A DNA stretch of 64,000 bases from an uncultured Candidatus Rokubacteria bacterium. GTDB taxonomy: Bacteria; Methylomirabilota; Methylomirabilia; Rokubacteriales; DASRDR01. Each line of letters opens with the position of its first letter. Within the stretch, counting starts at the first letter, position 1. The notes below the pieces were generated by a model. The model ran no database searches. It had not been told where the DNA came from and saw only the letters and a program-made list of their open reading frames with translations. Below, in pieces: positions 12,503 through 41,146 of this stretch. Made by a program: the position numbers and the translations under genes. The stretch is taken from positions 1 to 64,000 of the forward strand of contig CAVPSB010000021.1 of NCBI GenBank assembly GCA_963708025.1. Reading direction: 5' to 3'.

Positions 12503-15500
12503 TCAAGTGGGGGGGCTGGCGGCTTCGGTCTTCAGTGCGAGCGTCACGGCGTGGTAGAGGGCATCGATCGCGGCGACTCGCGAGACGGCGTCTGGGACAG
12601 CCCCGGCTCGGCTGAGCCGTTCGAGCTCCGCGCACTGGGCCGAGAGGCCGGTCGCACCCAGCATCGCGCTCGTCAACTTGAGCGTGTGAGCGACCTGTTG
12701 CATGCCCGGCGCCTCGCCTCGGGAGGCGGCGTCACGGAGCCCCGCGAGGAATCGAGGGGTGCCCTCGAGGAACGTGTCTATGACCTGCCGCAGCGCTTCA
12801 GCCCCGCCCAGCTCCTCCCGGAGCTGCGCGAGCACCTCCCGGTCGAGCATGACCGCGGTGGCGGAGCTGTCGGTCGGGCCTTCGCTCGAGGTCGCGTTCT
12901 GGTTTCCTGTCGGCCGGCACAGACTGAGTGCGCGACTGAGCCGGTCCCGGTTGACGGGCTTGACCACGTAGTCGTCCATACCCGCAGCCAGGCACGCCTC
13001 GCGGTCGCCTTGCATCGCCTCCGCGGTCATCGCGATGATCCGCGGCCGCTCACCGACTGGCCAGCGCGCGCAGATCGCGCGGGTCGCCTCGAGACCATCC
13101 ATCTCCGGCATCTGCACGTCCATGAAGATCACGTCGTAGGGGTTCCGCGACAGCCGCTCGAGCACCTCTTGCCCTGTCGTGGCGACCTCCGCGTGATAGC
13201 CGAGCCGTTCGAGCAGCCGGAGCGCAACCTGCTGGTTCGCCGGGTTGTCCTCGGCCACCAGGATCCTGAGTAGAGAGGCCACCGGTGCTGGCTGGTCGGC
13301 AGGCGGGCCGGACACCGGATGGACGCGGCTCGGCAGCTCGCCGACGATCCGACAGAGCTGGTCGTGGAGCTGCGAGAGCTTCAGCGGCTTGGAGAGCACG
13401 GCTGCGAACCCAGCTTCCCGGTGCCCGGTGGGAAGCGACTGACCGATGGAGGACAACAGGATGAGCACGGGCAGCCGCGATCCCGGTAGCTGGCGAATCG
13501 CCTGGGCCAGGGCGATCCCGTCCATCACCGGCATCTGATAGTCGAGGAGCGCGATGTCGTAGGGGTCGCCCTGTCGGATCCACTCGAGCGCTTCGGCCGG
13601 CGTCTCCGATTCCCGAGCGAAGAGGCCCCACTTCTCCGCCTGGAGTCTCAGGATCCGGCGGTTGGTGCGGTTGTCGTCCACGATGAGGACTCGCTTCCCG
13701 GCCAGAAGCGACGGCGGCCCCGGAGGCAGGACCGGGGTGGGCGGCGGAGCCGCCTTGGCCACGATGATGAAGTGAAAAGTGGAACCCTTCCCGACCTCGC
13801 TTTCGGCCCAGATCCGCCCGCCCATCAGCTCGGTGAGGCGCTTGCAGATGGCGAGGCCGAGGCCAGTTCCGCCGTATCGGCGCGTCGTCGACGCATCCAC
13901 CTGGCTGAACGACTGGAACAGCCGATCGAACCGGTCAGCAGGGATGCCGATGCCGGTGTCGCGGACCGCGAAGTGGACCTCGTACCCTCGGTCGCCGAGC
14001 GGCACGGCCTCGACGGCGACGCCGATCTCTCCCGCGGGGGTGAATTTGACGGCGTTGCTCAGGAGGTTCACGAGAACCTGGCGGAGGCGGCCGACGTCCC
14101 CCAGGAGCGCCAGCGGGACGGTGTCTTCCAGGAGATAGGTGAGCTCCAGACCTTTCTCCTGAGCCTTCGGCGCGACCAACTGGAGGGACTCCTCCATGCA
14201 TTCCGGGAGGTCGAAGGGTACCTCCTCCAGTTCCAGCTTCTCCGATTCGATCTTGGAGAAGTCCAGGATGTCATTGATGACCGTCAGCAGATGGTCGCCG
14301 CTGGCCAGGATGGTCTCGGCGAACTCCCGCTGCTGGCCATTCAGCGAGGTTTCCACGAGGAGGGTGGACATGCCGATGATCGCGTTCAGCGGAGTCCGGA
14401 TCTCGTGGCTCATGTTGGCGAGGAACGCAGACTTGGCCTGGGTGGCCGCTTCGGCGGCGATCCGGGCACGTTCGAGCTCCGTCTCGGCGCGCTTCCGCTC
14501 GATGAACTGACCGACCTGGCCGCCGACGCCGTCGAACATCTTCAGTAGGTCCTCGTCGGGTTCGCGGATCTCCGGGCTGAAGAACTCCATCACCCCCAGG
14601 AACCCGCTGGGGCCGACGATCGGGAACCCGAATGCTCCGTGGAGCCCTTCCTTGGCCGCGTGCGGGGCCCGGGGAAAATTCGGATCGTGGATCACGTCGG
14701 GAATCCACGCAGCGGTGCCGCTCTTCCAGACCCGCCCTGGCAGTCCCACGCCAAGGGGGAAGACCATGTGCCGGTTGACCTCCACGAACTCGGCGAGCGT
14801 TCGGGGCGACGGCGCGATCCACATCTCAGCGCACCTGAGCACGTTCCGCTCGGCGTCGAGGCTCCACCGCGCCCCCAGAACCCAGTCCAGGCTTTCCCCG
14901 ATCGCCTGCAGGATGCGCGGCATCGCCGCGGCGGGGCTCGCCGACTCGGCCAGGATGTGGGTCGTCGCGTACTGGGTCGCCAGCCGTCGCTCTCCCGCCT
15001 TTCGCTTCCGGTCGGTCCGGTTCAGCATTCGCGCGGTGACCCAGACGAGGGTCGCGAGGACCAGGATGGTGAGCACGACGGCGATCGCCAGGCCGACTTC
15101 GGTCTCGTAAAACCCTGCCCGCTCGCCGACGAGCCTCAACCAGCCCAGGACCGCCGGGATGAGGACGGTAGCCGGGAGGAGCCGTCGCGCCAGGATGCCG
15201 CCCGCCTCGTCGCTCGTCACGACCACCATCAGCCCCTGATCGGGATGCGCGCACAGGATTCCCACGCCGAGCGCCAAGAAGGCGACCGCCGTCGGCAGCG
15301 CCATGGGAATGTAGCGGGCTACGCCGTAGAGTTCGCCGACCCCGTAGACGTAACCGAGGATAGAGGCCAGGGCGATTGCGGACGGGACGAGGACGACGAC
15401 CTGGGCGGACCGGTACCGGTGTCCAGGCTCCAGGAGAAGCAACGCGATCCCGAGGAAGACGAGGGTGAGGCCGGTGTTGGGCGCGATCCGGTTCTCGCCG

Positions 15501-15859
15501 AGCCTGTCATGGAACAGGATCTGATCCAAACCGAGATTCTCGCCGATTGCGTACCCCGCGAGGGTGACGAGGCCGATGAGCACGACGAGTCCGGCCGCCA
15601 CCGGCGCCGCCCGATTGTTCTCTGGCACACGGACCGATGCCGGCGGCTGGGAGAGCCACAGGGCACCCGCCGCCAGGACAAAGGCGAAAGCCGTGGTCGG
15701 GTTCATCGCGACCCGACCGGGCAGGATGGTCGTGAGGAGGGCGACGTCGAAGTGCCATGCGAGAAGGATCGCCCCGACCCCGATGACGACGAGAGCGCTC
15801 ATCGCCCGCGAAAGGGCGGTGAGGCGGGCGACCCGGCGCAGGTTGACAGCCGGTCTCAT
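12503..15859 (-). CDS. Hybrid sensor histidine kinase (multi-TM, GAF, HisKA, HATPase, 2 REC, HPt)
   Basis: About 7 TM segments, GAF GLPGRVW, H-box [14 protein letters not shown]-box [19 protein letters not shown], two receiver domains, and HPt AHTLK. Confidence 0.95.
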
Positions 15860-27671: not shown

Positions 27672-28166
27672 TCAGTCGGGGTGGTACACCTGCATCATCG
27701 CGCGCAGGTCCTGGCGCAGCTCCTCGAGCGTCGGGCGACCGACGAACCAGCCCCCGTCGTAGACCTTGTGGATGGCGAGATCCGGCCCCACCGAGAAGCT
27801 ATAGGGGATCGCGATGCGGGGGTGGTTTGGATCGGTCTCGTCGACGATGTCCAGCTCGGTGACGGCCCGGCGGTCATGATCGCTCAGGAACGTGAACGTC
27901 GCGCCCAGCCCGGCGCGCAGCGCCCCGCAGACCTCCGGGGCGTCGGTGCTGATCACCGCCAGGTGGCAGTAGTTGACGTCGAGCTCGCGCTGCAGCTCGG
28001 TCAAGTGCCGCAACTGGCACTGGCACTTCGGTCACCAGTAGCCGCGGTAGAAGCTCACGATGAGCGGGTACCCGGCGGCGAGCTTGGAGAGCCTCACGGC
28101 TGCCCGCCGGTGGTCGGGCAGCTCGAGGTCGGGAAGGTGACCACCAACGACGAGGTCGGCGCGCAT
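27672..28166 (-). CDS. AhpC/TSA (peroxiredoxin-like) redoxin, probable selenoprotein with UxxC; TGA at 28032-28034
   Basis: ORFs 28032..28235 and 27672..28013 are in the same frame and read FYRGYW-TGA-PKCQCQL. The TGA sits at the first Cys of the RGxWCPxC motif and is followed by a hairpin. Confidence 0.85.
28003..28028 (-). promoter_or_regulatory. Candidate bacterial SECIS hairpin of the redoxin gene
   Basis: mRNA reads UGA CCG AAGUGCC AGUGCC AGUUGC GGCACUU. GGCACU(U) can pair with either (A)AGUGCC copy; the second copy starts 10 nt after the UGA. Confidence 0.6.
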
Positions 28167-28253
28167 GCCTGCCTCCTGTGAAGGACGCGAGTTCACGACG
28201 CCGTGGGTCGCTACGGAGTGGATGATCCCTCGCACCAGACGATCTAGCCGAGG

Positions 28254-29259: not shown

Positions 29260-30084
29260 CTACGCTCGGCACCGGTCCACCTGGACGAGCCGGGCCAGGA
29301 TCGCCTCGTGCAGGAGGCCGTTCGAGGCCACGAGGCCCCGCTCGCAGGCCAACGATTCGCCCCGGTAGTCGATCGGCGCTCCGCCGACGTCGGAAACCCG
29401 CCCGCCGGCGGCCCTCACCAGGGCATCGACGGCACACACGTCCCACCGCCGGAGACCGCGGCCCACGGCCACGTACGCTTCCGCCGCGCCCTGGGCGCCC
29501 TGGGCGCCCTTGAGCCCGGCGCTGCCCATGGCCCGGACCTCGCGGACCGCGAGAGCGCCCAGCGCCCGCTCCAGCCGGGCGCTACGATGCGAGCGCGACG
29601 CGACGATCCGCGCCTGCGCCAGCTCCCCGGTCGCACTGGCGCGGATCGCCACCCAGCGCCCCCCCGGCTCCACGCGCCAGGCCCCGAGGCCCGCCCCTCC
29701 GATCCAGGCCACGTCGGACACCGGGGCATGGATGACCCCGGCCACCGGGCTCGACCCGGCCACCAGGCCGATCATCACCACGAAGTCGCCGTTCCGATCG
29801 ATGAATTCCCGGGTCCCATCGAGCGGATCGACGGACAGCACGCGCTCGGCTCGGCGAAACCCCTGGAAGGACACCGGATCGCTCTCTTCCGACACCACGG
29901 GCACGCCGGGAAACGCGCCGTGCAGGCACCGGACGAGCAGCTCGTTGGACCGGCGGTCCGCGGCGGTCACAGGATCCCGGGGCCCCTTGAACGCCACGGT
30001 GAAATCCCCCTCGTACACGTCCCGTACGACGCGGGCGGCCGCAGCCGCGCTCTCCACCAGCGCCTCGAGCCCCGAGCGATCCAC
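29260..30084 (-). CDS. cysQ: 3'(2'),5'-bisphosphate nucleotidase CysQ / inositol monophosphatase family
   Basis: PVTAAD, VSEE, VDPLDGTREF, ASRSH, GSAGLK and WDVCA. Confidence 0.85.
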   Translation of the reverse strand: MDRSGLEALVESAAAAARVVRDVYEGDFTVAFKGPRDPVTAADRRSNELLVRCLHGAFPGVPVVSEESDPVSFQGFRRAERVLSVDPLDGTREFIDRNGDFVVMIGLVAGSSPVAGVIHAPVSDVAWIGGAGLGAWRVEPGGRWVAIRASATGELAQARIVASRSHRSARLERALGALAVREVRAMGSAGLKGAQGAQGAAEAYVAVGRGLRRWDVCAVDALVRAAGGRVSDVGGAPIDYRGESLACERGLVASNGLLHEAILARLVQVDRCRA

Positions 30085-30111: not shown

Positions 30112-30666
30112 TCAGAGTCCTCGTCGGTCGAGCCAGCGCATGAGGACCAGACCCAGCCCCAGCACCGGCAGGATCACCACCCAGTGGTTGACTCCGAGCA
30201 CGCCGGCCAGGGTCAGCTTTCCGTAGACGCCGACCTTCAACAGCGTGTCCGCGAGGAAGGGGTAGGTCTCCGCGTAGAGCCACGCCCCGAGCAGAATGCC
30301 CAGGATTCCCCGGAACAGCCCGTCCATGCGGCCTTCGCCGAAGGCCCCCACGCAGGTGCCGGGTCAGAAGCCGAGGAGCAGCATGCCGACGCCGAAGATC
30401 GCCGCGCCGAGGACGTTCGCTCCCAGCAGGACGGGCTTGACGTGGAGGTTCACCAGCCCGAGGTCGTAGAGGAGGTAGACGCCCACCATCCCCGCGAGGA
30501 TCCCGCCCATCATGACCTTGAGGACGGTGAGGTCGGTCAGCCGGAAGAACGCGACGATCTTGTCGTAGCGCGTGACCTGCCCCCGCTGGAGGATGAACCC
30601 GAAGGCGATCCCCGTCGCGAGACCGAGCAGGAGGCGCGGGGCGCCCGTGATCTCGAGTGGTCCCAT
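30112..30666 (-). CDS. YeeE/YedE family sulfur transporter (GxCPG type), probable selenoprotein; TGA at 30364-30366
   Basis: GIAFGFILQRG...IFGVGMLLLGF-TGA-PGTCVGAFGEG is continuous in one frame. The TGA sits at the Cys of the conserved GxCPGT motif. Confidence 0.88.
30330..30346 (-). promoter_or_regulatory. Candidate SECIS hairpin of the downstream YeeE gene
   Basis: GGCCUUC-GGC-GAAGGCC forms a perfect 7-bp stem 17 nt after the UGA. Further pairing is possible below it (UGC/GCA, CCCG/CGGG). Confidence 0.55.
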
Positions 30667-31190
30667 CAGTCGGCCCTCCGGAAGACGAGCCGGGCGGCAG
30701 CGATGCCGGCCAGCATCATGGTGCCGAGGAAGATCCAGCTGCTGAGCGCGAGCTGCAGGCTCCCACTGAGCCCGTGGCCCGATGTTCAGCCGTCGGCGAG
30801 CCGGGCCCCGAAGCCGACGAGCACCCCGCCCAGGAGCCCAATCGCCCACCGCCGCGCCGGGTTGGTGCCGAAGCGGTTGACCCACGCCTCGGGCAGCGCC
30901 GTCGTCACCGCCACCGACCGCCGGGCCAGGCGCGCGGCGAGCCACGCCCCGACCGGGATCCCCAGGACCAGCATGAACTGCCAGTCCACCAGCGGCTTGA
31001 CCGTCTGCCAGTACGCGTTGCCCGCGACGTGCTGGGGCGCCACGACGGAGACCGCCATCCCGGCGGCTCTCGAAAACGTGGTCGAGACCGACAGGTAGTA
31101 GTTCGCCGTGTAGAAGGCGAACATGTTGAGGACACCGAGGGCAAGCCCGGCTTGCCACCAGGGCCACTCCCGCTGTCGTATCCAGGTCAT
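30666..31190 (-). CDS. YeeE/YedE family sulfur transporter (GCTSGH type), probable selenoprotein; TGA at 30786-30788
   Basis: GGVLVGFGARLADG-TGA-TSGHGLSGSLQLALSSWIFLG...FRRAD*. The TGA sits at the Cys of GARxAxGCTSGHG. The readthrough stop overlaps the next ATG (TGATG). Confidence 0.9.
30756..30774 (-). promoter_or_regulatory. Candidate SECIS hairpin of the upstream YeeE gene
   Basis: CGGGCUC-AGUGG-GAGCCUG stem-loop starts 11 nt after the UGA and has a GU-containing loop, similar to the E. coli fdhF SECIS spacing. Confidence 0.65.
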
Positions 31191-31224
31191 CCGACACCTC
31201 CTGCCCGGCGGAGATGTGCCGCCG

Positions 31225-31827
31225 TCACTTCAGGCTCGCGTAGTACGCCGCCAGGTCGCCGAGAGCGTCGTCGGAGAGGGTCTTGACCAGCGCCTTGAGG
31301 GCGACGAGGTTCGGCTCTCCCGGGCTCCTCACGTCCGTCTTGAACTTCTGGAGCTGGAGCCGCAGGTAGCCGGCCGGCTGTCCCGCGATGTTCGGCACGC
31401 CCTTGGCGGGGTCGCCGGCGCCCGCCGGACCGTGGCACACGACGCACACGGCGGAGGCCGCGCTGCCGCGGGCCACGGCGCTCGCGTCGGCCGGGAGCGG
31501 AGACGGCTCCCGCCGTTGGGCCGCGAAGTACGCGGCGACGTCGTTGACGCCGAGCTCCGCGACCAGCTTGGCGAACGGCTCCATCTCGGCGGCCGGCCGG
31601 CGCCCCGACGCGTAGTCCTCGACGGCCTTCTTGAAGTACCACGGCGCCATCCCGGCCAGGATCGGCGTCGTGTTCGCTCGGCTGTTCCCGCCGAGTCCGT
31701 GGCACGCGCTGCAGGCGAACGCCTTCGGGTAGCCGGGCCCCAGCGGGTCGGCGCTCGCCGCGGCGGCGAGCACGCCCGCGTTCAGGATCACGACGGAGAT
31801 CACGATCAGCCGACGGGTCGCGCGCAT
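31225..31827 (-). CDS. Diheme cytochrome c (c553/c4; FccA/SoxE-like partner of the sulfide dehydrogenase)
   Basis: Signal peptide, CSACH and CVVCH, PILAGM and PNIAGQ. Directly downstream of fccB. Confidence 0.88.
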   Translation of the reverse strand: MRATRRLIVISVVILNAGVLAAAASADPLGPGYPKAFACSACHGLGGNSRANTTPILAGMAPWYFKKAVEDYASGRRPAAEMEPFAKLVAELGVNDVAAYFAAQRREPSPLPADASAVARGSAASAVCVVCHGPAGAGDPAKGVPNIAGQPAGYLRLQLQKFKTDVRSPGEPNLVALKALVKTLSDDALGDLAAYYASLK

Positions 31828-31838
31828 GGTCGCCTCCC

Positions 31839-33099
31839 CTACCCGAGGATGTCCTGCCAGATGTTGGTGGCCCATGACAGGGCGTTCTGCGCGAACGCCT
31901 CCGACTGGCCGGGCGTCAGCTTCTGCTCGATCTGCTCCACCTTCCGGTTCCGGATCCGGTACGCGTTGATCACCCCCATCACCTCGCGGTCGCTGACCCA
32001 GCTGTAGCAGGTGTTGATGGGCGCCATCGGCGCCGGATCTCTGCCTTGCAGGAGGCTGACCACCGCGTTCGCGACGATCTTGCCCATGCTGTTCGCCACC
32101 GTGCCGGACTTCGGCACCGGGATCCCGATCGTCGCGTCGCCCACGACGTGGACGCCCTTGGCCTTGACCGACTCGTACGTGACGTGGTTGACCTCGCACC
32201 ACCGCTTGTCGCCGGCCACGAGGTCGGCCTGGACCGCGATGGCCCCGGCGCGCTGGGGCGGGATGACGTTGACGACGTCGTACTTGACCCGGTCGCCGAG
32301 CTCCGTGACGACCTCGCCGGCGCCGGGGTCCACCTGGGTCACCTTCGTCGAGGCCCGGTACTCGAGGTTGGGATAGGCACGCCAGGCGGCCTTGAACAAG
32401 CGCCGGCTTCGAGATGACGTCCTGGTTGGCGTCGAGCACGAGCACCTTCGACCGCGGCTTGGCGCTCTTCAGGTACCAGGCGACCTGACAGGCGCGCTCG
32501 TACGGGCCCGGCGGGCACCGATACGCGGCCGGCGGGATGGTCATGACGAAGACGCCGCCGTCGGGCATGGCCTGGATCTGCTGGGCCAGCTGGACCGTCT
32601 GGGGTCCCGCCTTCCAGGCGTGCAGGACGCGGTCCCCGGCGGCGGCCAGCCCGTCGATCTGCTCGAGCTGGAAGTCGACGCCCGGGGCGACGATGAGCCG
32701 GTCGTACTCCAGGTATCCGGCCCCGACGCGGACGCGCCGGACGTCGGGCTCGATGGCGGTGGCCGCCTCGTGGCGGATCGTCACGCCGTGCCGCCGGAGC
32801 CCGTCGTAGGGCATCGTCAGGCTGGCCAGGGTCCGGACGCCGCTGAGCACCAGGTTGCTCAAGGGACAGGAGACGAACTCCCGGTTCGGCTCGAGCAGGA
32901 TGACCTCGATGCCCGGATCGGCGAGGCGGACGTACTTGGCCGCCGTGGCCCCGCTCCACCCCCCGCCGACCACGACGACGCGGCGGCCCGTCTTGGGCGC
33001 CAGGTCAGCGGGCTGGGCGAACGCGAGGGTCGGCCAGCCCAGCGCCGCCACGGCCGCGGTGGACCGTCCGAGGAATTGTCGACGCGAGACGGGGTGCAT
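31839..33099 (-). CDS. fccB: Flavocytochrome c sulfide dehydrogenase flavoprotein subunit (FccB/SoxF), one frameshift at ~32400
   Basis: Tat signal SRRQFL, VVVGGGWSGATAA, SCPLSN, HAWKAG, YRCPPGPYERA, VIPPQRAG, PKSG and NTCYS. Confidence 0.9.
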
Positions 33100-33161
33100 G
33101 GCTTCTCCTCCCTGGATGTGAGACGGCCGAGGATCACCCGGCCGCACTCGCCTGGACGTGG

Positions 33162-34050
33162 TCACTTCCCGAGCGACTCGCGCTCCATCAGCACGTAGGT
33201 CCCATAGGCGTTGATCCGGTTCGCCGGCTCGAACGCGGGCAGGTGGCGTGAATCGGCTCCAGTCGGCCTTCGCGTACGCCTCCTCGAACGGCACCATGTC
33301 CTGGACGGCTTGCCCCATCACGGCGCGGAGGTGGACCAGGTACTCCCGCGTGAAGACGAGGTGCGCGACCGGGTCGCGAGAGGCCGGGCCGTGCCCCGGC
33401 ACCATCACGTGCGGTCGGAGCGGCACGAGGCGGTCGATCGCCCGGAGCCATCCCTTGCTGTCTCCCCCGCCGACGAAGGGCACCCGCCCCGCGAACGCGA
33501 TGTCCCCGACGAACAGCACGCCGTCCGGGCGAACGGCCAGCACGATGTCTTCCGGCGAGTGGGCGGGTCCCACGTAGGTGAGCTCGAAGTCGAGTCCGCC
33601 CAGCGCGAAGCGCTCGTCGCCCGCGAGCCACCGGTCCGGCGGGACGAGCTCCGTCTTCTCGGTCAGCCCCGGCCCCAGATCCCGCCGGCGCTGCGCGAGC
33701 CGGGCGCCGCTGTCGTTCTGGAGGTACTCCCGGCCCCGCTCGTGGGCCCAGATCTCGGCGCCGATCTCCTTGAACGCCCCCAGCCCGTAGAAGTGGTCCG
33801 CGTGGTAGTGCGTGACGACGACGCGGCGGATCGGCCTCGGGGTGACCCGGGCGATCGCCGACCGGAGCGCCCGGCCGAGCCGATAGGTGCCCAGGGCGTC
33901 CACGACCACCACGCCCTCGTCGGTGACGACGAACCCCGCGTTCGAGTTGAACCCCTCGTTGTCCGGCGACGCCATGCCCGGCACGCCCTCCACGTAGTAG
34001 GCATGCGGGCCGACCTGTTGCGGGCGGACCGTCACGGCCATGTCAGCCAC
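33162..34050 (-). CDS. MBL-fold metallo-hydrolase (SoxH-like), frameshift at ~33246; start uncertain
   Basis: NAGFVVTDEGVVVVD, THYHADH, GPAHS and VPGHG. The C-terminus HLPAFEPANRINAYGTY is in a shifted frame. Confidence 0.8.
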
Positions 34051-34065
34051 TCCCTGGCCGCGGCA

Positions 34066-35792
34066 TCACTCCGCGGCGAGGCCGGGGTCTCCCGCGACCC
34101 CGAGGAGCACGGGACGGTTCGGCGTGAGCGGCTTCACCACCTTCCGGTCCCGGAGGTAGCGGGTCACGACGTCCCAGATCGGCTCCCCCCCGGCGCTCCG
34201 CGCCTCCTCGGACACGGGGGCCCAGCCGGCCACCTTGTACTTCCGGGCCGGGTCGATCGGGCGGCCGCCCAGGCGCATGTCACTGATCCGGGAGCCGGGC
34301 GAGCGCTCCCGGCGCGCACGCGTACGTCAGCCCTCCGACGCGCACCATGTCGCCGCCCTGCTGGTAGTACGGATCCGGGTTGAACAGGTTGTCGCCGACG
34401 TCCTCCAGGATCGCCTTGATGGTCTCCCCGGTCATCTCGGTCAGCGTCGTGTAGGGGTAGGTGATCGCCGTCTGGTCCATCACGTGCTCGAAGGTGACGG
34501 CCTGACCCGGCAGGATCGTCGTCCCCCAGCGGAAGCCGGGCGAGAACGCGATCTCCGCGCCCTTCACCGTCATCAGGGCGTCCAGGATCAGCTGGTCGAA
34601 CGTGCCGTTGAAGTTGCCCCGCCGGTACAGGAGTCCCTCGGTCACGGCCAGCGCCTCCGACAGCTTCGCCTCGTACGGCGCCCGCACGCGCCGGATGTGC
34701 GCCTCCATGCCCGGGTCGGCCGGGAGCAGGTTGGCGAAGACGGGGAGCAGCCGGTACCGGAAGTCGGCCACCTTGCCGCCCGTGACCTGGAGGTCCAGCA
34801 CGGCCAGGAACTTCCCGTTGGAGCCGGCGTTCGTCACGAGGGTCCGGCCCCCGGCGTTCCGGACGATCGACGGCGCCGGCATCCCGTCGTGGGTGTGGCC
34901 CGCCCAGGATGGCGTCGATGCCGCGCACCCGGCCGGCCAGCTTCAGGTCGACGTCCATCCCGTTGTGGGACAGCACGACGACGACCTGCGCCCCCTTGGA
35001 CCGGCGCCTCGTCCACGGTCTTCTGGAGAGGCTCCTCCCGGATGCCGAACGTCCACGTGGGCACGAAGTAGCGGGGATTCGCGATCGGCGTGTAGGGGAA
35101 GGCCTGCCCGACGATCGCCACGGCCACCCCGTTCACCGTCCTGATCACGTACCCCGGGAAGACCGGGTCCTCGAAGTCCGCGGTCCTGACGTTCTGGGCC
35201 ACGAAGTCGATCTGGCCCTTGAAGTCCTTCTCCACGACCTCCGTCACGCGCTCGGCGCCGTACGTGAACTCCCAGTGTCCCGTCATGACGTCCACGCCGA
35301 GGAGCTTCGCCGCGTCGACCATGTCCTGGCCGCGGGTCCAGAGCGACGTCGCCGAGCCCTGCCAGGTGTCGCCGCCGTCGAGCAGCAGCGCGCCGGGGCG
35401 GCTCGCCCGGAGGCGCTTGACCAGCGTGGCCAGGTGCGCGAACCCGCCGACCTTGCCGTAGGTCCGGGCGGCCCGCGCGAAGTCCAGATGGGTGAAGGCG
35501 TGGGCCTCTCGCGTGCCCGGGTCGGAGGCCGAACTGCCGGAGCAGCCGCTCGCCGACGAGGTGCGGGCGGCTGGCCGGCGCCGTCGCCGACGCCGAGGTT
35601 CACGCTCGGCTCGCGGAAGTAGACCGGGAGGAGCTGGGCGTGCGTGTCGGTGAAGTGGAGGAGGCTCACGTGGCCGAAGCGCGGCACCTCGTAGAGCTGG
35701 TCGGCCGTCGCCGCCAGGCTCACCCGCCGGTCGACCGCGAGCCCGCTCGCCGCCGCCACCAGGAGGACCTGCAGGAAGTCCCGTCGCGTCAT
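34066..35792 (-). CDS. soxB: Thiosulfohydrolase SoxB, five +1 frameshifts (~35567, 35519, 35003, 34900, 34298)
   Basis: Tat TRRDFL, HFTDTHAQLLPVYFREPS, DGGDTWQG, GHWEFT, GQAFPYTPIANP, LSHNG, LYRRGNFNG, SPGFRWG and NPDPYYQQGGDMVR. Confidence 0.92.
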
Positions 35793-35854
35793 CGCCGATC
35801 GTTCCTCTCCCCGCGGCCCCGCCCCTGCCGGCCCGTCTCGCCCGGCGCTCGCAC

Positions 35855-36496
35855 CTATCGGTTCACCGGCGACGCGGGGTCCAGGAGCAGCGCGACCAGG
35901 TGCGTGATCTGCTCCTCGGTCAGGATGCCGTTGTGACCGAACCGCGGCATGGACGAGCACGGGATGAAGCCCTGGGGATTGGAGATCCGCGCGAACACGT
36001 ACTTCTGCATGCCCACGGAGTCACCGCGCTGCTTGCCGTACTGGTAGAGGCTCGGCCCGATGGTCCCGTACGACAGCTCGTGCGGCGCGAGCTGATGGCA
36101 GGCGTAGCAGTTCCCGCCGGCCGGCCGGGCGGGATCGTCGCTGAACTGCTTCCCGACACCGCTCTGCGCGATCCGCTCCCCCTGCCGCCAGTCGCCCATG
36201 TACTTCCCGTCGGCGGGGTACTTCACCGCGGCCAGGTTCGCCTCCTGGATCCGCCGCGCCGCCTCGGGGGACAGCGAGGCCCGGGGGTCCGGCCGGCTGC
36301 AGAGGGCCTGGGCCTCGTCCTGGTCGAGGCGGTCCAGGGTGGCCTGGCCCCGAGCTTTGAACGAGGACTTCAGCACCGCGAGCACGTCCGCCGGGGCCTG
36401 GGCCTGGATGGCGGTGGCGCCGAGCGCGATCGCGAAGACGACGAGCACGCTGCCGAGCCTCGATCCCGTCATGAGCCCCCTCCGCCTGGTCGACAT
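35855..36496 (-). CDS. soxX: Sulfur oxidation c-type cytochrome SoxX
   Basis: GDWRQGERIAQSG, GNCYACHQ, GTIGPSL and MPRFG. Confidence 0.92.
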   Translation of the reverse strand: MSTRRRGLMTGSRLGSVLVVFAIALGATAIQAQAPADVLAVLKSSFKARGQATLDRLDQDEAQALCSRPDPRASLSPEAARRIQEANLAAVKYPADGKYMGDWRQGERIAQSGVGKQFSDDPARPAGGNCYACHQLAPHELSYGTIGPSLYQYGKQRGDSVGMQKYVFARISNPQGFIPCSSMPRFGHNGILTEEQITHLVALLLDPASPVNR

Positions 36497-36513
36497 GTCG
36501 TGGCCGCCCCGGA

Positions 36514-37358
36514 TCAGCGCTTGATCGCCGGCGCGTTGAAGGTCCCGCCGTTCGCGTTCCGGGCCAGGAACATGGTCAGCGCGATGGACGCGTCCGACCC
36601 GAACTCGAGCGGGGGGAACCGCTGCTGCCGGAAGCAGTCGTAGAGCCGCCACTGCATCGTCCGGAGCTCGCCCTGGGAGACCCGGTAGGCCGGCCAGCTC
36701 GTGTAGGCGCGCTGCGCGTCCTTGGGGTCCGTCAGATTCGGCAGGTCCTGCAGCCGGATCCGCTTGCCGGTCTCGGAGTGACACGTCGCGCAGGCGAAAT
36801 CGTGCGGCCCGCCCCGGAAGAAGAAGATCCGCTCGCCGAGGGTGTAGGCCTCGCGCTCCTGGGGATGATCGAGCGGCACCCGCATGCGCACCCCCTTGGA
36901 CTCGGAGGTGACCCAGGCCACCAGCGCCTCGATGTCCGAGCGCTTGCTCCCGTCGCCGATAGGGTCGCTGCGTCGCCTCCGCCCGGTGAGAATCCCTGCA
37001 GCGTCACCATGCAGTGGACCAGCCGGGTCTCGAGGTCCATGACCCGGTTGGCGTCGGGGAAGTAGCGAGGGAGCTCGGCGTAGGCGCCCTTCACGATGCC
37101 TGGCCCCTTGCCGAGGTCACACGGCTCCAGCGAGACGTTCCTGGGGCCCCGCTTCTGCGCCCATAGCCCCTCGCCGCGCGCCTCCCACAGCTCCGCGGGG
37201 TTGCCCTCCGCGAGCGCCTCCCGGTAGCGCTCGATCTCCTTGACCGTGTCGCCCCCGCTCGGGCCGGCACCCTGCTGGGCGCTGGCCACGAAGCCGATCA
37301 GGACGAGGCCCCCGCCCAGTGCGAGACCGAATAGCCGCCAGCTTCTCGTCTTGTGCAT
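36514..37358 (-). CDS. soxA: Sulfur oxidation c-type cytochrome SoxA (monoheme type), two +1 frameshifts at ~36960-36985
   Basis: GNPAELWEARGE, AYAELPRYF, CATCH, RIRLQDLPNL, WPAYRVSQG, RLYDCFRQQR and APAIKR. Confidence 0.92.
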
Positions 37359-37454
37359 GCTCCCCTCCCCGGGGGCCCGCCTCACGGCCTCGGCTGCCCG
37401 GACTCACCCTTCCGACGTGGAAGACCGGGTCCCCGGCGTGGTGCCGTCAGGGCG

Positions 37455-37766
37455 CTACTTGACCTCGACCTCGTCCGTCCGCGTGTCGCCCTTGTTGTCC
37501 GTCCACGTGATCTGGAGCTTGTCGCCCGGCTTGCCGCCCGCGAACTGAAACTGCAGGTACGGATTCTTCGACACGGCCGGCCCCCACTCGGCCAGCAGCA
37601 CGGTCCGGCCGTTGTGCGTCGCGGCGACCGACTGGATGAAGTGCGCCGGGACGACGTTGCCCGCCGAATCCTTTCGCTGGCCGGTCTCCATCTCGTGGCT
37701 CATGAGGACGCGGACCAGCACGCGGTCCCCCTGCATCGTGGCTCGGATACGCATCGGGTCAGCCAT
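37455..37766 (-). CDS. soxZ: Thiosulfate oxidation carrier complex protein SoxZ
   Basis: LMSHEMETGQRKD, PAHFIQ, SKNPYLQF and WTDNKGD. Confidence 0.95.
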   Translation of the reverse strand: MADPMRIRATMQGDRVLVRVLMSHEMETGQRKDSAGNVVPAHFIQSVAATHNGRTVLLAEWGPAVSKNPYLQFQFAGGKPGDKLQITWTDNKGDTRTDEVEVK

Positions 37767-37826
37767 GTGGTCCCTCTCAGTTGCTGTCGTGCCTCGGAAG
37801 ACTCGCCCCGGTCGGGACGCCTGCCG

Positions 37827-38324
37827 CTAGCCTCCGCAGCCGCCCAGCGTGACCTTGATCTCCCGGGTCGCGATGAAGTACTTGCCGTCCTTGGTCCGGA
37901 TCAGCGCGTGGACGTTCGACGATTCGCTGATCTTCACGCGGGTCGACACGATCGGATCCGTGCCCGGCGGGAAGCGGAAGTTGGCGGCCAGCTTGTTCGG
38001 GTTCTTCTCGATCATGATCGCGATCGACTCGGTGTCCGGGATGCGACTCGTGACGCTCACCGGGACGACCGCGCCGTTCTCCGCGATCTCGGGCGTCGAG
38101 CCCCAGGACACCTCCGTCGTCTCCGTGGGGCTCCCCCCGCCGTAGGCCTTGACGACCTCGTCGACGGTCTTGGCCGAGAACGCGTCCTTGTTCCAGGCCA
38201 CGCCCGACGGCTGCGCGGCCGCTTCGGGCGGGCGTCCGAGGCGCCCGGCCCCGACGACGCCCGCGATCACCGCGCTCCCGAAGACCTTGAGCACCTGCCT
38301 GCGACTCCCGTTCACTGGCTGCAT
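37827..38324 (-). CDS. soxY: Thiosulfate oxidation carrier protein SoxY
   Basis: Tat signal, PEIAENGAVVPV, EKNPN and C-terminal KVTLGGCGG. Confidence 0.97.
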   Translation of the reverse strand: MQPVNGSRRQVLKVFGSAVIAGVVGAGRLGRPPEAAAQPSGVAWNKDAFSAKTVDEVVKAYGGGSPTETTEVSWGSTPEIAENGAVVPVSVTSRIPDTESIAIMIEKNPNKLAANFRFPPGTDPIVSTRVKISESSNVHALIRTKDGKYFIATREIKVTLGGCGG

Positions 38325-38334
38325 CGATTCCCCC

Positions 38335-39405
38335 TCACTTCAGCTCGGCCAGGATCCACTGCGCGATCGCCTGCAGGTCACCCTCGCTCACGTGCGCCTG
38401 GGGCGGCATGGGCACGGAACCCCAGGTGCCGACGCCACCGCTCTTCATCCGGCTCACCAGGGCCGTCGTCGCCTCCGTGGTCTGCCGGTACTTTCCGGCG
38501 ATTTCCAGGAACGAGGGCCCGACCGTCCGCTGGTCGACCGCGTGACAGGCCACGCAGGCATGCTTCCGGGCGAGCGCCAGGCCATCGCTGCCCGTCGGTC
38601 CGCCCGCCGGCGCCACCGGCACCGTCGCCAGCGCCCGGGCCGCCTCACCCGCGGCGCCCGCCAGCGGCGGCTTCGTCGTGTCCGCCCCCCGCACCGGCCC
38701 GACGAGACGGTTCTGCTCGAGCAGGTTGCCGTGCGAGTTCCGCGCGTGGGCGGGGATCGTGGACGTCACCGTGCCCTCCGGCGGGCAGTCCCGCATGCAC
38801 GCGGGGCTCCTCACGTCGGGCGTTCCCTTCACGTCCCAGAGCCCGTGCCGCCGCGTGAGACCGTGCCGGTTCGGCAGCCGGTCCTGGACCTCCCGGATGT
38901 TCGCGTCCGAGAGGACGAAGTCGGCGGGCACGATGTCGCCGAGGTTGAGGATGTAGGCGACCAGCGCGTAGACCTCCTCCGTGGTCAGGCTCTTCGGCGC
39001 GTTCCACGGCATGGCCCGGTTGATGTAGTCCCAGAGCGTCGAGAGCGTGGCGAGCTTCATCAGGGTCGTCCGTTGCTCGTTCGGCTTCCGCAGCGCGGCC
39101 GCGTGCCCCGTCGCGATGTCCTCCTTCGTGGTCCCGCCCACGATCGGCGGGAACACCTGGGTGCTCTCCCCGAACGTGCCGTGGCAGGCCGCGCACTTCT
39201 CGTCCCACACCTCCTGGCCCTTCGCCACGCTGCCGGAGCCCCTGGGCAAGCCGGTGAAGTCGGGCCGGACGTCGATGTCCCACGCCCCGATCTCGGCGGG
39301 CGTGGCCGGCCGGCCGACGCCGCGGAAGTGGCCATGCGCGTGCGCCACGCCGCCGGCCAGGAGCGCCACGGCAAGCGCGCCGAGGACGCTACGAGACCTG
39401 GACAT
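38335..39405 (-). CDS. soxD: Sulfane dehydrogenase cytochrome subunit SoxD (diheme)
   Basis: GRPATPAEIGAWDIDVRPD, CAACHG, WDYINRAMPW and a second heme site CVACH. Confidence 0.92.
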   Translation of the reverse strand: MSRSRSVLGALAVALLAGGVAHAHGHFRGVGRPATPAEIGAWDIDVRPDFTGLPRGSGSVAKGQEVWDEKCAACHGTFGESTQVFPPIVGGTTKEDIATGHAAALRKPNEQRTTLMKLATLSTLWDYINRAMPWNAPKSLTTEEVYALVAYILNLGDIVPADFVLSDANIREVQDRLPNRHGLTRRHGLWDVKGTPDVRSPACMRDCPPEGTVTSTIPAHARNSHGNLLEQNRLVGPVRGADTTKPPLAGAAGEAARALATVPVAPAGGPTGSDGLALARKHACVACHAVDQRTVGPSFLEIAGKYRQTTEATTALVSRMKSGGVGTWGSVPMPPQAHVSEGDLQAIAQWILAELK

Positions 39406-40742
39406 TCGACACCTCGCCGGACGCCGCCACCTGCCACGACTGGATGGCGTTGTTGTGATAGATCGAGCGCGTGCCCCGGACCGCCCGGAGCTGCCGGATC
39501 GTGGGCTGGACGTAGCCTGTCTCGTCGATGGCGCGGCTCTGGAGGAGCGCCGGGCGGCCGTCCCAGACCCAGTCGCAGGTGAAGCGCGTGAGGCACTTCG
39601 GGAGGATCGGCGGCTGGAGGCGGGCGGTGCGCCAGTTGCGGCCGCCGTCGACGGAGACATCGATGCGCGTGACGCGACCGCGGCCGGACCAGGCGACGCC
39701 CGTGACGTTGCAGTAGCCCCGCGGCCAGCAGCACCTGCCCGCCCGACGGGGTGGTGATGACCGACTTGCATTCCTGGATCGACGTGTACTGGCGATGCGT
39801 CCCGTCCGGCATGAGATCCACGTAGTGCAGGACCTCGTCCTTCGTCCCGTAGGGCTGGTCCCCGACCTCGAGCCGGCGCAGCCACTTGACCCAGGAGACG
39901 CCCTGGACCCCGGGGACCACCAGTCGCAAGGGGTATCCGTTCTCCGGCCGCAGCATCTCGCCGTTCATCCCCCACGCCACGAGGACGTCGTCGAGCGCGC
40001 GGGCCATCGAGATCGTGCGCGTCAGCCCCGAGCCGTCGGCTCCCTCGGCGAGGACGAACTTCCCCCGCGTCTTGTCGATCCCACATTCGTCGAGCAGGAC
40101 GGCCAGGGACACGCCCGTGTACTCGCAGCAGGACAGCATGCCGTGCGTGTACTGCACCGTGGGCACCGCGGCGTTGCCCCACTCCATCCCCGTGTTCGCC
40201 CCGCACTCGATGAAGTGGATCCGCGAGGTGGACGGGAGCCGCATCAGGTCGTCCATGGTGTAGACCGTGGGCCGCTTCACGAGCCCCATGACCATGAGCC
40301 GATGCTGGCTGGGGTCGATGTCGTGCCACCCCTGATGGTGACGCTCGAAGTGCAGGCCACTCGGCGTGATCATGCCGAAGAAGCCCTGAAGCGGGGCGAA
40401 GGAGACCGAGGCCGCCGAGACGCGGGTCAGGCCCGGGCTCTCGCGCCGCATCAGGTTCGCCTCGTACTTCGAGGGCAGTCCGTAGCCGCGCGCCGCCACC
40501 GGCTGGCCGAGTGACGTGCTGTGGGGGGGCAGGGTGAGGATGGCCGGATCGCCCGCGCCCGCCGCCGAGCCTGCGCCCGCGGGCTGCCCGAAGGCCCGCC
40601 GGCCGGTCAGCGCGATCCCCGCGGCGAGCGCGCTCGCCTTCAGGAATCCGCGGCGACCGGCCTCGACGGCGGCGATGTCCCGCGCGCTCAGGAACCCTTC
40701 CGGCGCCGGCCGGATGCGACCCGGCCCGATCCGCTCGCTCAT
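39389..40742 (-). CDS. soxC: Sulfane dehydrogenase molybdopterin subunit SoxC, one frameshift at ~39722
   Basis: Tat RRGFL, ITPSGLHFERHH, FIECGAN, NGEMLRPENGYPLRL, SRAIDETGYVQP and YHNNAIQSW. Confidence 0.92.
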
Positions 40743-40801
40743 CCTACCTTCTCCCCTTCGGCGTTCCGGGGTCAGATCCGCTCACCCGCGTGTCGATCCA
40801 C

Positions 40802-41146
40802 TCACCGGACCCGGCGCATCAGGGCGTCGGCCTGGGCCCGTTCGGCTCGCAGATGGGTGGCGAGCACCCCGCGCATCGTCTCGCAGACTGTCTTGATCTC
40901 CGGGTAGCGCAGCCGGTAGAAGACCCCCCGGCCTTCCCGCCGGACCGTCAGCACCGCACTTGCCCGGAGCACGGCCAGGTGCTGCGAGAGGTTCGCCTTC
41001 GCGATCCGGAGCTTCCCGAGCAGCGTCGCGTACGGCACCTCCCGGTGGCCGATCAGATCGAGAATGCGCAGGCGCGTCGGGTGGCCGAGCGCCTTCGCGA
41101 TGTTCGCCTGGAGCACGAAGAGATCGGCGGGCGGATGTCGTGTCAC
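40802..41146 (-). CDS. ArsR/SmtB family transcriptional regulator heading the sox operon
   Basis: KALGHPTRLRIL, ANLSQHLAVLR and RREGRGVFYRL. Confidence 0.9.
   Translation of the reverse strand: MTRHPPADLFVLQANIAKALGHPTRLRILDLIGHREVPYATLLGKLRIAKANLSQHLAVLRASAVLTVRREGRGVFYRLRYPEIKTVCETMRGVLATHLRAERAQADALMRRVR

Follow-up and report, generated by a model that had tools for sequence, protein, structure and literature searches.

A split YeeE/YedE-type transporter with probable selenocysteine codons at both pathway positions, encoded behind a sox-fcc gene cluster

Two overlapping half-size transporter genes that lie behind a sox-fcc cluster are each interrupted by one in-frame TGA codon. Hence, the locus raises the question whether these codons end two broken genes or specify selenocysteine (Sec), and what kind of transporter the pair would encode in the latter case. 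The stretch of DNA analyzed here (the window) is 64,000 nucleotides long. The pair occupies positions 30112-31190, with both genes on the minus strand, and these coordinates proved right when checked against the sequence. We assign a probability of roughly 0.85 to the reading that both codons truly specify Sec, within a channel of the split YeeE type. The relevant features are:

30666..31190, minus strand: gene 1, 174 aa with predicted Sec135; PmpA/YedE1-like, C-terminal-half type YeeE/YedE
31197..31201, minus strand: ribosome-binding site GGAGG of gene 1, about 6-8 nt before the ATG
30786-30788, minus strand: TGA, predicted Sec codon 1, U135 of gene 1 (residue 135 of 174); GARLADG-TGA-TSGHGLSG, motif DG-U-TSGH
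30756..30774, minus strand: hairpin 1, CGGGCUC-AGUGG-GAGCCUG; 7-bp stem, UGA-to-loop distance 18 nt, -10.4 kcal/mol
30668-30666, minus strand: TGA, true stop of gene 1
30112..30666, minus strand: gene 2, 184 aa with predicted Sec101; PmpB/YedE2-like, N-terminal-half type
30364-30366, minus strand: TGA, predicted Sec codon 2, U101 of gene 2 (residue 101 of 184); LLLGF-TGA-PGTCVG, motif GF-U-PGTC
30352..30354, minus strand: Cys105 of gene 2, four residues after Sec101 (U-PGT-C), the sole cysteine across both proteins
30330..30346, minus strand: hairpin 2, GGCCUUC-GGC-GAAGGCC; 7-bp stem, UGA-to-loop distance 24 nt, -10.0 kcal/mol
30112-30114, minus strand: TGA, stop of gene 2

The ATG of gene 2 (30666-30664) overlaps the stop codon of gene 1 by one base in the junction TGATG, as given in a preliminary description of this DNA, and gene 2 also has a GGAGG-type ribosome-binding site, 8 nt before its ATG. 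Judged by sequence, the pair is two halves of a split YeeE/YedE protein (PF04143, Sulf_transp) of the PmpA/PmpB or YedE1/YedE2 kind. Gene 1 matches the Pfam model with 80 bits at model positions 171-308 and gene 2 with 49.5 bits at positions 10-149 (gathering cut-off 27), and phmmer aligns gene 1 to residues 239-331 of PDB 8j4c/6leo and gene 2 to residues 4-173 of 6leo. The layout is that of split PmpAB and YedE1E2, with adjacent half-size genes, one C-half-like and one N-half-like, each holding one conserved pathway residue. Three narrower identities were tried and rejected. Of the TsuA models, NF041049 gave 38.4 and 42.8 bits (NCBIfam cut-off 400) and NF052577 gave 30.5 and 22.1 bits (cut-off 645), and the models for YedE/FdhT gave 35.4 and 27.5 bits against 350 (NF033796) and 24.4 bits against 200 (TIGR04112). 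SoxT is full-length and found in a soxSRT arrangement, whereas the pair consists of half-size genes that close the cluster on its 3' side, with ~10 kb between them and the ArsR-type gene.

The in-frame UGAs had been described as lying at the conserved Cys of both genes, and the sequence bears this out. U135 of gene 1 aligns exactly with Cys293, and U101 of gene 2 exactly with Cys91, of Spirochaeta thermophila YeeE (StYeeE; phmmer); both conserved pathway positions of this protein are occupied, by U101 and U135, and a threonine stands at the position of its Cys22. According to PMC7449682, Cys293 and Cys91 are essential in StYeeE, Cys293 being the periplasm-facing thiosulfate contact and Cys91 lying centrally. 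For the split CpYedE1E2, PMC10812762 reports that uptake of zero-valent sulfur requires the two proteins YedE1 and YedE2 together, as well as the cysteine of each. The residues replaced in the pair are exactly the two that mutagenesis found indispensable in one-chain and split transporters. The regions spanning and following the UGAs read TSGHGLSG... and PGTCVGAFGEGR..., and the remaining cysteine, Cys105, is conserved in all seven close orthologs aligned. Among the 54 loci that show the motif it is present in five, which are the close orthologs L069-L073.

Alternation between Cys and TGA among homologs had been proposed as a check, and it is found at both sites, in all four combinations:

Both TGA: G000, G081, G083, G088, G103, G069, G208, G022
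Gene 1 Cys and gene 2 TGA: G039, G031, G021, G034, G054, G025
Gene 1 TGA and gene 2 Cys: 23 loci, mostly Desulfobacterota, Nitrospirota and Syntrophorhabdus
Both Cys: L070, G071

Among close orthologs, site 1 is TGA in seven and Cys in four. For gene 1, 9 of 37 match rows carry a TGA. For gene 2, a scan of 251 genomes of the phylum gave one TGA in 39 of 130 match rows, and all eight matches at an identity of at least 72% contain one. The gene-1-type partner at the 23 loci (Desulfobacterota, Nitrospirota and others) reads ARLADG-TGA-PSGH. Since the same two codons are TGA in the orthologs of other genomes, their placement at Cys positions is more than chance; both sites bear the mark of a bacterial selenoprotein, an in-frame UGA where homologs carry Cys, with TGA and Cys alternating. 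Decay of the frames beyond the codons, which the preliminary description had named as counter-evidence, was not seen in the orthologs, where these frames are intact and conserved. In five orthologs at an identity of at least 72%, 26-31 of 38-39 post-TGA residues of gene 1 and 51-57 of 83 of gene 2 are conserved (19/39 and 43/83 in G071). The orthologs share common ends of both proteins, and conservation downstream equals that upstream.

Each UGA is followed by a 7-bp stem-loop, as had been noted, and on folding both hairpins agree with the published bSECIS constraints (PMC13188914, section 5: loop of 3-9 nt with G in the first two loop positions, stem of 4-16 bp, spacing of 16-37 nt and MFE of -7.5 kcal/mol or lower). 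In this DNA of 71% G+C the folding energies of 50-62 nt stretches are unremarkable compared with shuffles (z-scores -0.4 to -1.4), and we therefore rely on conservation across species. Hairpin 1 is kept in 7/7 TGA orthologs and weakened in 4/4 Cys orthologs. Hairpin 2 is kept in 7/8 TGA orthologs and absent from 2/2 Cys orthologs; 5 bp of it remain in the TGA ortholog G103, and a compensatory change from U-A to C-G is found in G081, G076 and G069. In the Cys form G039 the protein sequence GHGLSGGLQ is identical to that of the TGA forms, yet synonymous changes break its hairpin.

A search of the genome for selA, selB, selC and selD, suggested earlier, found all four above curated cut-offs. The genes selA (598 bits) and selB (372 bits) adjoin the tRNA-Sec gene (selC, 76 bits) on contig C32, and selD (398 bits) itself contains an in-frame TGA; the machinery lies on contigs other than that of the pair, in an assembly with 8% estimated contamination. 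All ten related genomes checked encode selA, and nine of those carry the TGA form. Apart from the pair, the same genome holds a Sec-peroxiredoxin candidate. We reject a reassignment of TGA in the genetic code, since in the window it is the most frequent ordinary stop codon and closes 19 of the 28 ORFs that are likely to be coding. Four lines of evidence agree, namely the Sec machinery, the alternation of Cys and TGA, hairpins of SECIS type that track the codons and frames conserved downstream, and for these reasons both TGAs are, with high confidence, read as Sec codons, in agreement with the earlier proposal of Sec at both relay positions.

The pair sits behind a soxCDYZAXB-soxH-fccBA cluster and is followed by a CysQ-like gene:

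34280..41146, minus strand: rest of the sox cluster, overall span
40802-41146, minus strand: ArsR-type regulator
38335-40742, minus strand: SoxC-like molybdoenzyme with SoxD-like cytochrome
37827-38324, minus strand: SoxY, ends GGCGG
37455-37766, minus strand: SoxZ
36514-37385, minus strand: SoxA, in two frames
35855-36784, minus strand: SoxX-like cytochrome
34280-35960, minus strand: SoxB-like, in several frames
31225..34050, minus strand: SoxH-like metallo-beta-lactamase, flavocytochrome c sulfide dehydrogenase flavoprotein and dihaem cytochrome c (Pfam: Lactamase_B, Pyr_redox_2, FCSD_central, FCSD-flav_bind, Cytochrom_C)
29260..30084, minus strand: inositol monophosphatase family protein (CysQ-like; PF00459, E 9e-45), 27 nt after gene 2

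Several of the surrounding sox genes carry frame changes, which points to an imperfect assembly or a decaying cluster, and the flavoprotein gene of the flavocytochrome c sulfide dehydrogenase is likewise broken by a frame change. Gene 1 begins 34 nt after the stop of the cytochrome c gene on the same strand, and the pair is probably co-transcribed with the sox-fcc genes here.

Such a setting invites the explanation that the TGAs are true stops in a cluster undergoing decay, whether through nonsense mutation or faulty assembly, with pseudogenes or truncated products as the result. The broken sox genes nearby fit this, as does one relative that seems to have lost the pair, and public gene calls give only truncated pieces. 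As had been predicted for standard annotation, public collections list both genes under short 'hypothetical' pieces, 134, 100 and 71-79 aa long; the 134-aa product of gene 1 belongs to a cluster of 17 at 90% identity, in which all 15 members listed are 134 aa long, and the 100-aa product of gene 2 to a cluster of 10 sequences. However, the same codons are TGA in the orthologs of at least seven other genomes and in the two clusters just named, whose 17 and 10 sequences were assembled independently. The frames beyond them remain intact, with conservation on a par with that of the parts before them, the hairpins persist with TGA and not with Cys, and the genome has the complete Sec machinery. The nearby defects, moreover, are frame changes and not substitutions, as the preliminary description had already held. 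Assembled contigs from four metagenome runs, the best of which held 26% of sampled words, span both TGA sites (X1 records 4 and 5; X2 records 9 and 11), and the six TGA bases show no difference among the 40 contig differences listed (97 further ones exist), which is compatible with either reading. Taken together, true stops are a very remote prospect. Because its genes are filed as short fragments, the transporter is invisible in surveys, and a widespread transporter would have been missed by studies of the sulfur cycle and of selenoproteomes.

The Sec reading leaves room for different roles. Functional coupling to Sox/Fcc sulfur oxidation, as put forward in the preliminary description, found no support beyond the position in this one genome. 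None of the four orthologous loci examined has sox or fcc neighbors; instead, these are a chromate transporter with methyltransferases, a 1-Cys peroxiredoxin, HlyD/MacB and a cbb3 oxidase with USP. Fifteen loci of the wider family share no partner and lie mostly near housekeeping genes, and in a near-identical relative a 258-nt contig (~99% identity) joins position 30173 to 31182 without the pair. These observations agree with a real double-Sec channel that is unrelated to Sox. It would import or detoxify sulfane sulfur or thiosulfate on its own, would merely lie beside the sox-fcc cluster and might feed assimilation, as a CysQ-like gene follows. We take this explanation seriously, at slightly less than even odds. 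It has to account for the spacing of the pair, which shares its strand with both neighbors and is separated by 34 nt from the preceding cytochrome c gene and by 27 nt from the following gene, leaving no obvious room for a promoter of its own, and for full-length YeeE relatives (SoxT) that work with Sox systems (PMC11582611). A dedicated Sox role is somewhat less likely than not, and neither the substrate nor a Sox link can be read from context, because the neighborhoods of the orthologs and of the wider family vary. A channel for selenium (selenide, selenite-derived or selenopersulfide species) would resemble YedE/FdhT-type proteins of selenium metabolism. Both halves match NF033796 (YedE/FdhT) and TIGR04112 weakly, and the organism uses selenium (selD, the Sec-peroxiredoxin candidate and this pair), but the matches are far below cut-off (35 and 27.5 bits versus 350; 24 versus 200). 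In addition, neither at this locus nor at the orthologous ones is the pair flanked by selD, yedF or any other selenium gene, and the characterized split pair moves zero-valent sulfur according to PMC10812762. Selenium transport is accordingly improbable.

For the double-Sec, split YeeE-type channel that we favor, SelB and tRNA-Sec would recode each UGA, directed by the small hairpin 18 or 24 nt downstream, and other UGAs, the stops of both genes included, would terminate translation normally. Homology to the single-chain YeeE of known structure suggests that the halves assemble into a pseudo-symmetric hourglass. A heterodimer is very likely by analogy, and the heteromeric transporter proposed earlier is also how the literature reads half-size pairs: PMC11582611 proposes such heteromers, in line with the need for both subunits and both cysteines reported in PMC10812762. 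Sec135 of gene 1 would stand at the periplasmic entry (Cys293 position) and Sec101 of gene 2 about 7 A deeper (Cys91 position), with Cys105 predicted one helical turn later. The channel would most likely import reduced sulfur species (sulfane/zero-valent sulfur or thiosulfate), passed along Se-Se-S sites, and the sox-fcc genes would make such species in the periplasm; a sulfur substrate, suggested by analogy, has about an even chance. Sec at both positions argues for chemistry there, namely nucleophilic attack on sulfane sulfur, and not just for hydrogen bonding. That a narrow centre lined only by Sec135, Sec101 and Cys105 (U...U-x3-C) acts as a covalent chalcogen relay is an idea that we consider rather unlikely. 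If true, sulfane sulfur would move from periplasm to cytoplasm as Se-S and S-S adducts, in contrast to the free anion guided by hydrogen bonds that has been proposed for TsuA. The four natural Sec/Cys combinations would then be a ready-made series to test chemical group transfer in the YeeE family, and to ask what makes two Sec in a single small transporter worth their cost to soil Methylomirabilota. With the pair, sulfur handling in soil bacteria of the Methylomirabilota type would come to depend on selenium as well.

Among known systems, PmpA/PmpB of Serratia sp. ATCC 39006 and YedE1/YedE2 of Cupriavidus pinatubonensis JMP134 are likewise encoded by adjacent C-half and N-half genes, carry a single pathway residue per half, at the positions of Cys293 and Cys91, and lack a Cys22 equivalent. 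Compared by description, these proteins use cysteine and have ~130-140 aa, the split type being described with ~130 aa and four transmembrane helices per subunit, whereas the pair has predicted Sec, 174 and 184 aa and an extra Cys four residues after the Sec of gene 2. TsuA/YeeE of S. thermophila and E. coli (6LEO, 6LEP, 8J4C), a thiosulfate importer that works with TsuB/YeeD, belongs to the same fold family; its essential Cys293 and Cys91, to which the Sec sites correspond in the alignment, are separated by ~7 A at the narrow centre of the hourglass. TsuA differs in being a single polypeptide of 330-350 aa that has nine helices and contains three cysteines. Next to the pair, moreover, there is no gene resembling TsuB/YeeD. 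SoxT (SoxT1A/SoxT1B of Hyphomicrobium denitrificans) comprises YeeE-like importers encoded in sox/shdr regions and shares with the pair that a YeeE-family membrane protein is encoded with sox genes and an ArsR-type regulator. By the criteria of PMC11582611, SoxT differs in being full-length (330-350 aa, nine helices) with three Cys and a soxSRT order, whereas the pair is split, stands at the far end of the cluster and has orthologs that are not linked to sox.

The closest relation is to selenoproteins already on record. YeeE/YedE is catalogued as a selenoprotein family (PF04143, motif GUxSG, one Sec, example WP_012471001.1; tables of PMC13188914 and PMC9312934), and the supplement of Peng et al. 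2016 has the entry 'YeeE/YedE family 5 5', a census that counted only five members. The words YeeE/YedE are absent from the main texts of GOS 2008 and Peng 2016 and do not occur in two GOS supplement files, and in the literature searched we found no mention of the second Sec site (GF-U-PG) or of a double-Sec state. Novelty is less than the preliminary description implied, as Sec-containing YeeE/YedE has been listed since 2016, and the pair is a real, mis-annotated extension of this catalogued family. Its gene 1 motif DG-U-TSG fits GUxSG exactly within the same Pfam family, and WP_012471001.1 would presumably be a half-size protein of the gene 1 type. The listing has a single Sec and a single motif, whereas in the pair a Sec is predicted in the partner subunit too (GF-U-PG, at the Cys91-equivalent position), and the assembled channel would therefore hold two.

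Two adjacent genes on the minus strand each contain one in-frame TGA codon, and translation of both frames confirmed the motifs of the preliminary description (U, selenocysteine, Sec):

31190-30666, minus strand: gene 1, 174 residues, in-frame TGA at 30786-30788 (U135) in GARLADG-U-TSGHGLSG, terminal stop TGA
30666-30112, minus strand: gene 2, 184 residues, in-frame TGA at 30364-30366 (U101) in LLLGF-U-PGTCVG

The A of the gene 2 ATG is the last base of the terminal TGA of gene 1 (TGATG), the overlap already reported for this pair, and each start is preceded by a GGAGG-type ribosome-binding site. The G+C content of the window is 71%. TGA terminates 19 of its 28 likely coding ORFs and is hence an ordinary stop in this organism, so that recoding must be site-specific. 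We consider it very probable (about 0.9) that both TGA codons are decoded as Sec, as originally proposed. This reading draws on the decoding machinery, the codon alternation among homologs, the hairpins and the downstream frames.

All four genes of the machinery that the preliminary description suggested looking for, selA, selB, selC and selD, were found in the source genome G000 (8.17 Mb, 49 contigs, 99.7% complete, 8.2% contamination). On contig C32, selA (598 bits) and selB (372 bits) are clustered with tRNA-Sec (76 bits), no more than 5 kb apart. The best selD match (398 bits, C7:91381-92304) has one in-frame TGA inside, and judged by its sequence SelD is probably a selenoprotein itself. 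A second selD-like match on contig C23 lies within an 833-aa open frame, possibly a fusion. Furthermore, selA is present in 10/10 related genomes checked, nine of which have a TGA form. In a phylum scan of 251 genomes, gene 2 had matches in 116 and a TGA in 39 of 130 match rows; three of these 39 are from unpublished genomes (G055, G094, G104), on which no result hangs. All eight gene 2 matches of at least 72% identity contain exactly one TGA. For gene 1, a scan of the phylum gave a TGA in 9/37 match rows. The gene 2 scan also returned a distant gene-2-type match with two in-frame TGAs (G084:C13:21196-21732). Upon translation, the TGA falls on the Cys column in every fetched ortholog. The expected alternation of Cys and TGA exists at both sites, and all four states occur among orthologs. 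Adjacent genes with TGA in both are found in G000, G081, G083, G088, G103, G069, G208 and G022, and Cys in gene 1 combined with TGA in gene 2 in G039, G031, G021, G034, G054 and G025. The reverse state was seen at 23 of 65 loci of a species-wide scan, mainly from Desulfobacterota, Nitrospirota and Syntrophorhabdus, with the motif ARLADG-TGA-PSGH. Cys in both genes is found, for example, in L070 and G071.

The 7-bp stem-loop described after each UGA was borne out by folding. Hairpin 1 (gene 1; CGGGCUC-AGUGG-GAGCCUG, -10.4 kcal/mol) and hairpin 2 (gene 2; GGCCUUC-GGC-GAAGGCC, -10.0 kcal/mol) have their loops 18 and 24 nt from the UGA, respectively, carry a G within the first two loop positions and agree with the bacterial SECIS model in all four constraints quoted in PMC13188914 (section 5). 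Shuffle z-scores of these regions are weak in such G+C-rich DNA, and thus the case for the hairpins rests on the comparison of orthologs. Hairpin 1 is intact in all seven TGA orthologs (-9.5 to -10.4 kcal/mol) and weakened in all four Cys orthologs (-0.5 to -6.4 kcal/mol); G039 encodes the identical peptide GHGLSGGLQ with other synonymous codons, which disrupt the stem. Of eight TGA orthologs, seven have an intact hairpin 2 and G103 has 5 bp of it left; both Cys orthologs lack it. In G081, G076 and G069 a U-A pair is replaced by C-G with pairing preserved, probably a single event because the three belong to one genus. More distant TGA forms have a different hairpin in the same place (GGCCGU-GGGU-GCGGCC).

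Decay of the frames downstream of the TGA was not seen. In the orthologs these frames are intact, share common end points and are conserved about as much as the parts before the TGA. In gene 1, 26-31 of 38-39 residues are kept after the TGA in five orthologs of at least 72% identity (19/39 in G071), and 88-101 of 131-134 before it. The values for gene 2 are 51-57/83 (43/83 in G071) and 59-84/100. As had been predicted, standard annotation splits the genes: the exact truncated products of both have entries in the public protein collection, under the names 'hypothetical protein' or 'uncharacterized membrane protein YfcA'. The 134-aa piece of gene 1 belongs to a 90%-identity cluster of 17, with 134 aa in each of the 15 listed, the 100-aa piece of gene 2 to a cluster of ten (100 aa in nine of them, 101 aa in the tenth), and the 79-aa tail clusters with two 71-aa sequences. 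The TGA stops therefore recur across many separate assemblies. As to the proposed read check, assembled metagenome contigs show nothing against the two codons, which is not decisive.

The pair is preceded by sox and fcc genes:

Upstream, same strand: ArsR-type regulator, SoxC/D-like, SoxY (ending GGCGG), SoxZ, SoxA, SoxX-like cytochrome, SoxB-like
Upstream, same strand: SoxH-like metallo-beta-lactamase, flavocytochrome c flavoprotein, dihaem cytochrome c (stop 34 nt from gene 1)
27 nt 3' of gene 2: CysQ-like phosphatase gene

At 31225-40742 (minus strand), SoxA, SoxB-like, the FCSD flavoprotein and SoxC-like each extend over at least two reading frames, which could reflect assembly indel errors or a decaying sox cluster. 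The association with sox is not conserved, as no sox or fcc neighbours occur at four orthologous loci, G081/L069 (an NC10-labelled MAG), G083/L072, G039/L134 and L070 (a Binatia-labelled MAG). A 258-nt contig from the wetland metagenome run X3 (record 18, 2 mismatches) joins 30173 directly to 31182. It brings together the flanks on the cytochrome c and CysQ-like sides and omits 1008 nt, the whole Sec pair apart from 9 nt at the start of gene 1 and 62 nt at the end of gene 2. This junction, a single contig at a depth of about 6, hints that a near-identical relative deleted the pair and kept the flanks, a possible presence/absence polymorphism. In view of this gene context, co-transcription with sox-fcc is likely in this genome, and a dedicated Sox role, as the coupling had been described, is unproven.

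Across fifteen wider-family loci there is no common neighbour except at three Syntrophorhabdus-type loci, L089, L093 and L097 (about 10.5-12.1 kb and 6.5-9.1 kb), with TGA in gene 1 and Cys in gene 2. Here, a ~480-aa pyridine-nucleotide disulfide oxidoreductase lies directly 3' of the pair and an FMN reductase and a TtcA-like PP-loop ATPase lie 5', the latter resembling the TtcA neighbour of C. pinatubonensis yedE1E2 in the available part of PMC10812762. In L069, a flavoprotein resembling CoA-disulfide reductase and ending in a rhodanese domain (13939-15756, minus strand) lies downstream of the double-Sec pair, at a distance of ~3.4 kb. In the window, some 2 kb away from the pair, an AhpC/TSA-family ORF (27672-28253, minus strand) has a TGA at 28032-28034 in the motif FYRGYW-U-PKC (UxxC); its Pfam match is confined to model positions 39-121, after the TGA, and its sequence suggests a probable Sec-peroxiredoxin, a known selenoprotein kind.

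The preliminary description left open whether Sec-containing YeeE proteins inside sox clusters had been described. Sec-containing YeeE/YedE proteins are already catalogued, as a family in two reviews (PMC13188914 and, from 2022, PMC9312934) and as 'YeeE/YedE family 5 5' in a supplement of Peng et al. 2016, and gene 1, with G-U-T-S-G, is an ordinary member of this family. In the literature searched, which lay outside subscription journals and most supplements, no report linking PmpB or YedE2 with selenocysteine was found, PF04143 and 'selenoprotein' co-occurred in a 2026 review only, and the available text of Li et al. 2024 (PMC11582611) has no word starting 'seleno'. Within this scope, the GF-U-PG site of the partner subunit and a double-Sec channel appear undescribed. 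The pair thus extends a known selenoprotein kind and does not found a new class. Its use lies in annotation and in the natural test that it offers of how such channels transport.

Both products score over the cut-off of PF04143 (Sulf_transp), that of gene 1 in the C-terminal half (80 bits, model positions 171-308) and that of gene 2 in the N-terminal half (49.5 bits, positions 10-149). NCBIfam models for TsuA and YedE/FdhT match weakly, far under their cut-offs, and membership there was rejected. S. thermophila YeeE/TsuA entries are the only phmmer matches among PDB sequences; counted along these alignments, U135 aligns with Cys293 and U101 with Cys91, and the Cys22 position is a threonine. 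The sole Cys in either subunit lies in gene 2, four residues past Sec (U-PGT-C; 30352-30354, minus strand). It is kept in close orthologs only, in Sec and Cys forms alike, is missing from the wider family, and might be a stand-in for the absent Cys22 or a resolving residue. In the available text of PMC7449682, Cys293 of YeeE contacts thiosulfate in a periplasmic indentation, Cys91 and then Cys22 follow at ~7 A spacing through a thin centre, and complementation is lost in C91A and C293A, not in C22A. According to the part available of Li et al. 2024 (PMC11582611), the C-terminal half of YeeE resembles PmpA and the N-terminal half PmpB, each with one cysteine at exactly the Cys293 and Cys91 positions, and a PmpA-PmpB heterodimer is proposed. 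For C. pinatubonensis, the accessible text of PMC10812762 reports that YedE1 and YedE2 jointly, neither singly, sped zero-valent sulfur uptake, which was abolished by Cys to Ser exchange of either conserved residue. By homology and these published experiments, the heteromeric transporter suggested earlier is probable, as a YeeE-type channel. The half-model matches, the equivalence with Cys293 and Cys91 and the published split pairs identify the window pair as a split channel of the PmpAB/YedE1E2 type, with a C-half-type and an N-half-type gene and with both key cysteines written TGA where the known pairs have Cys.
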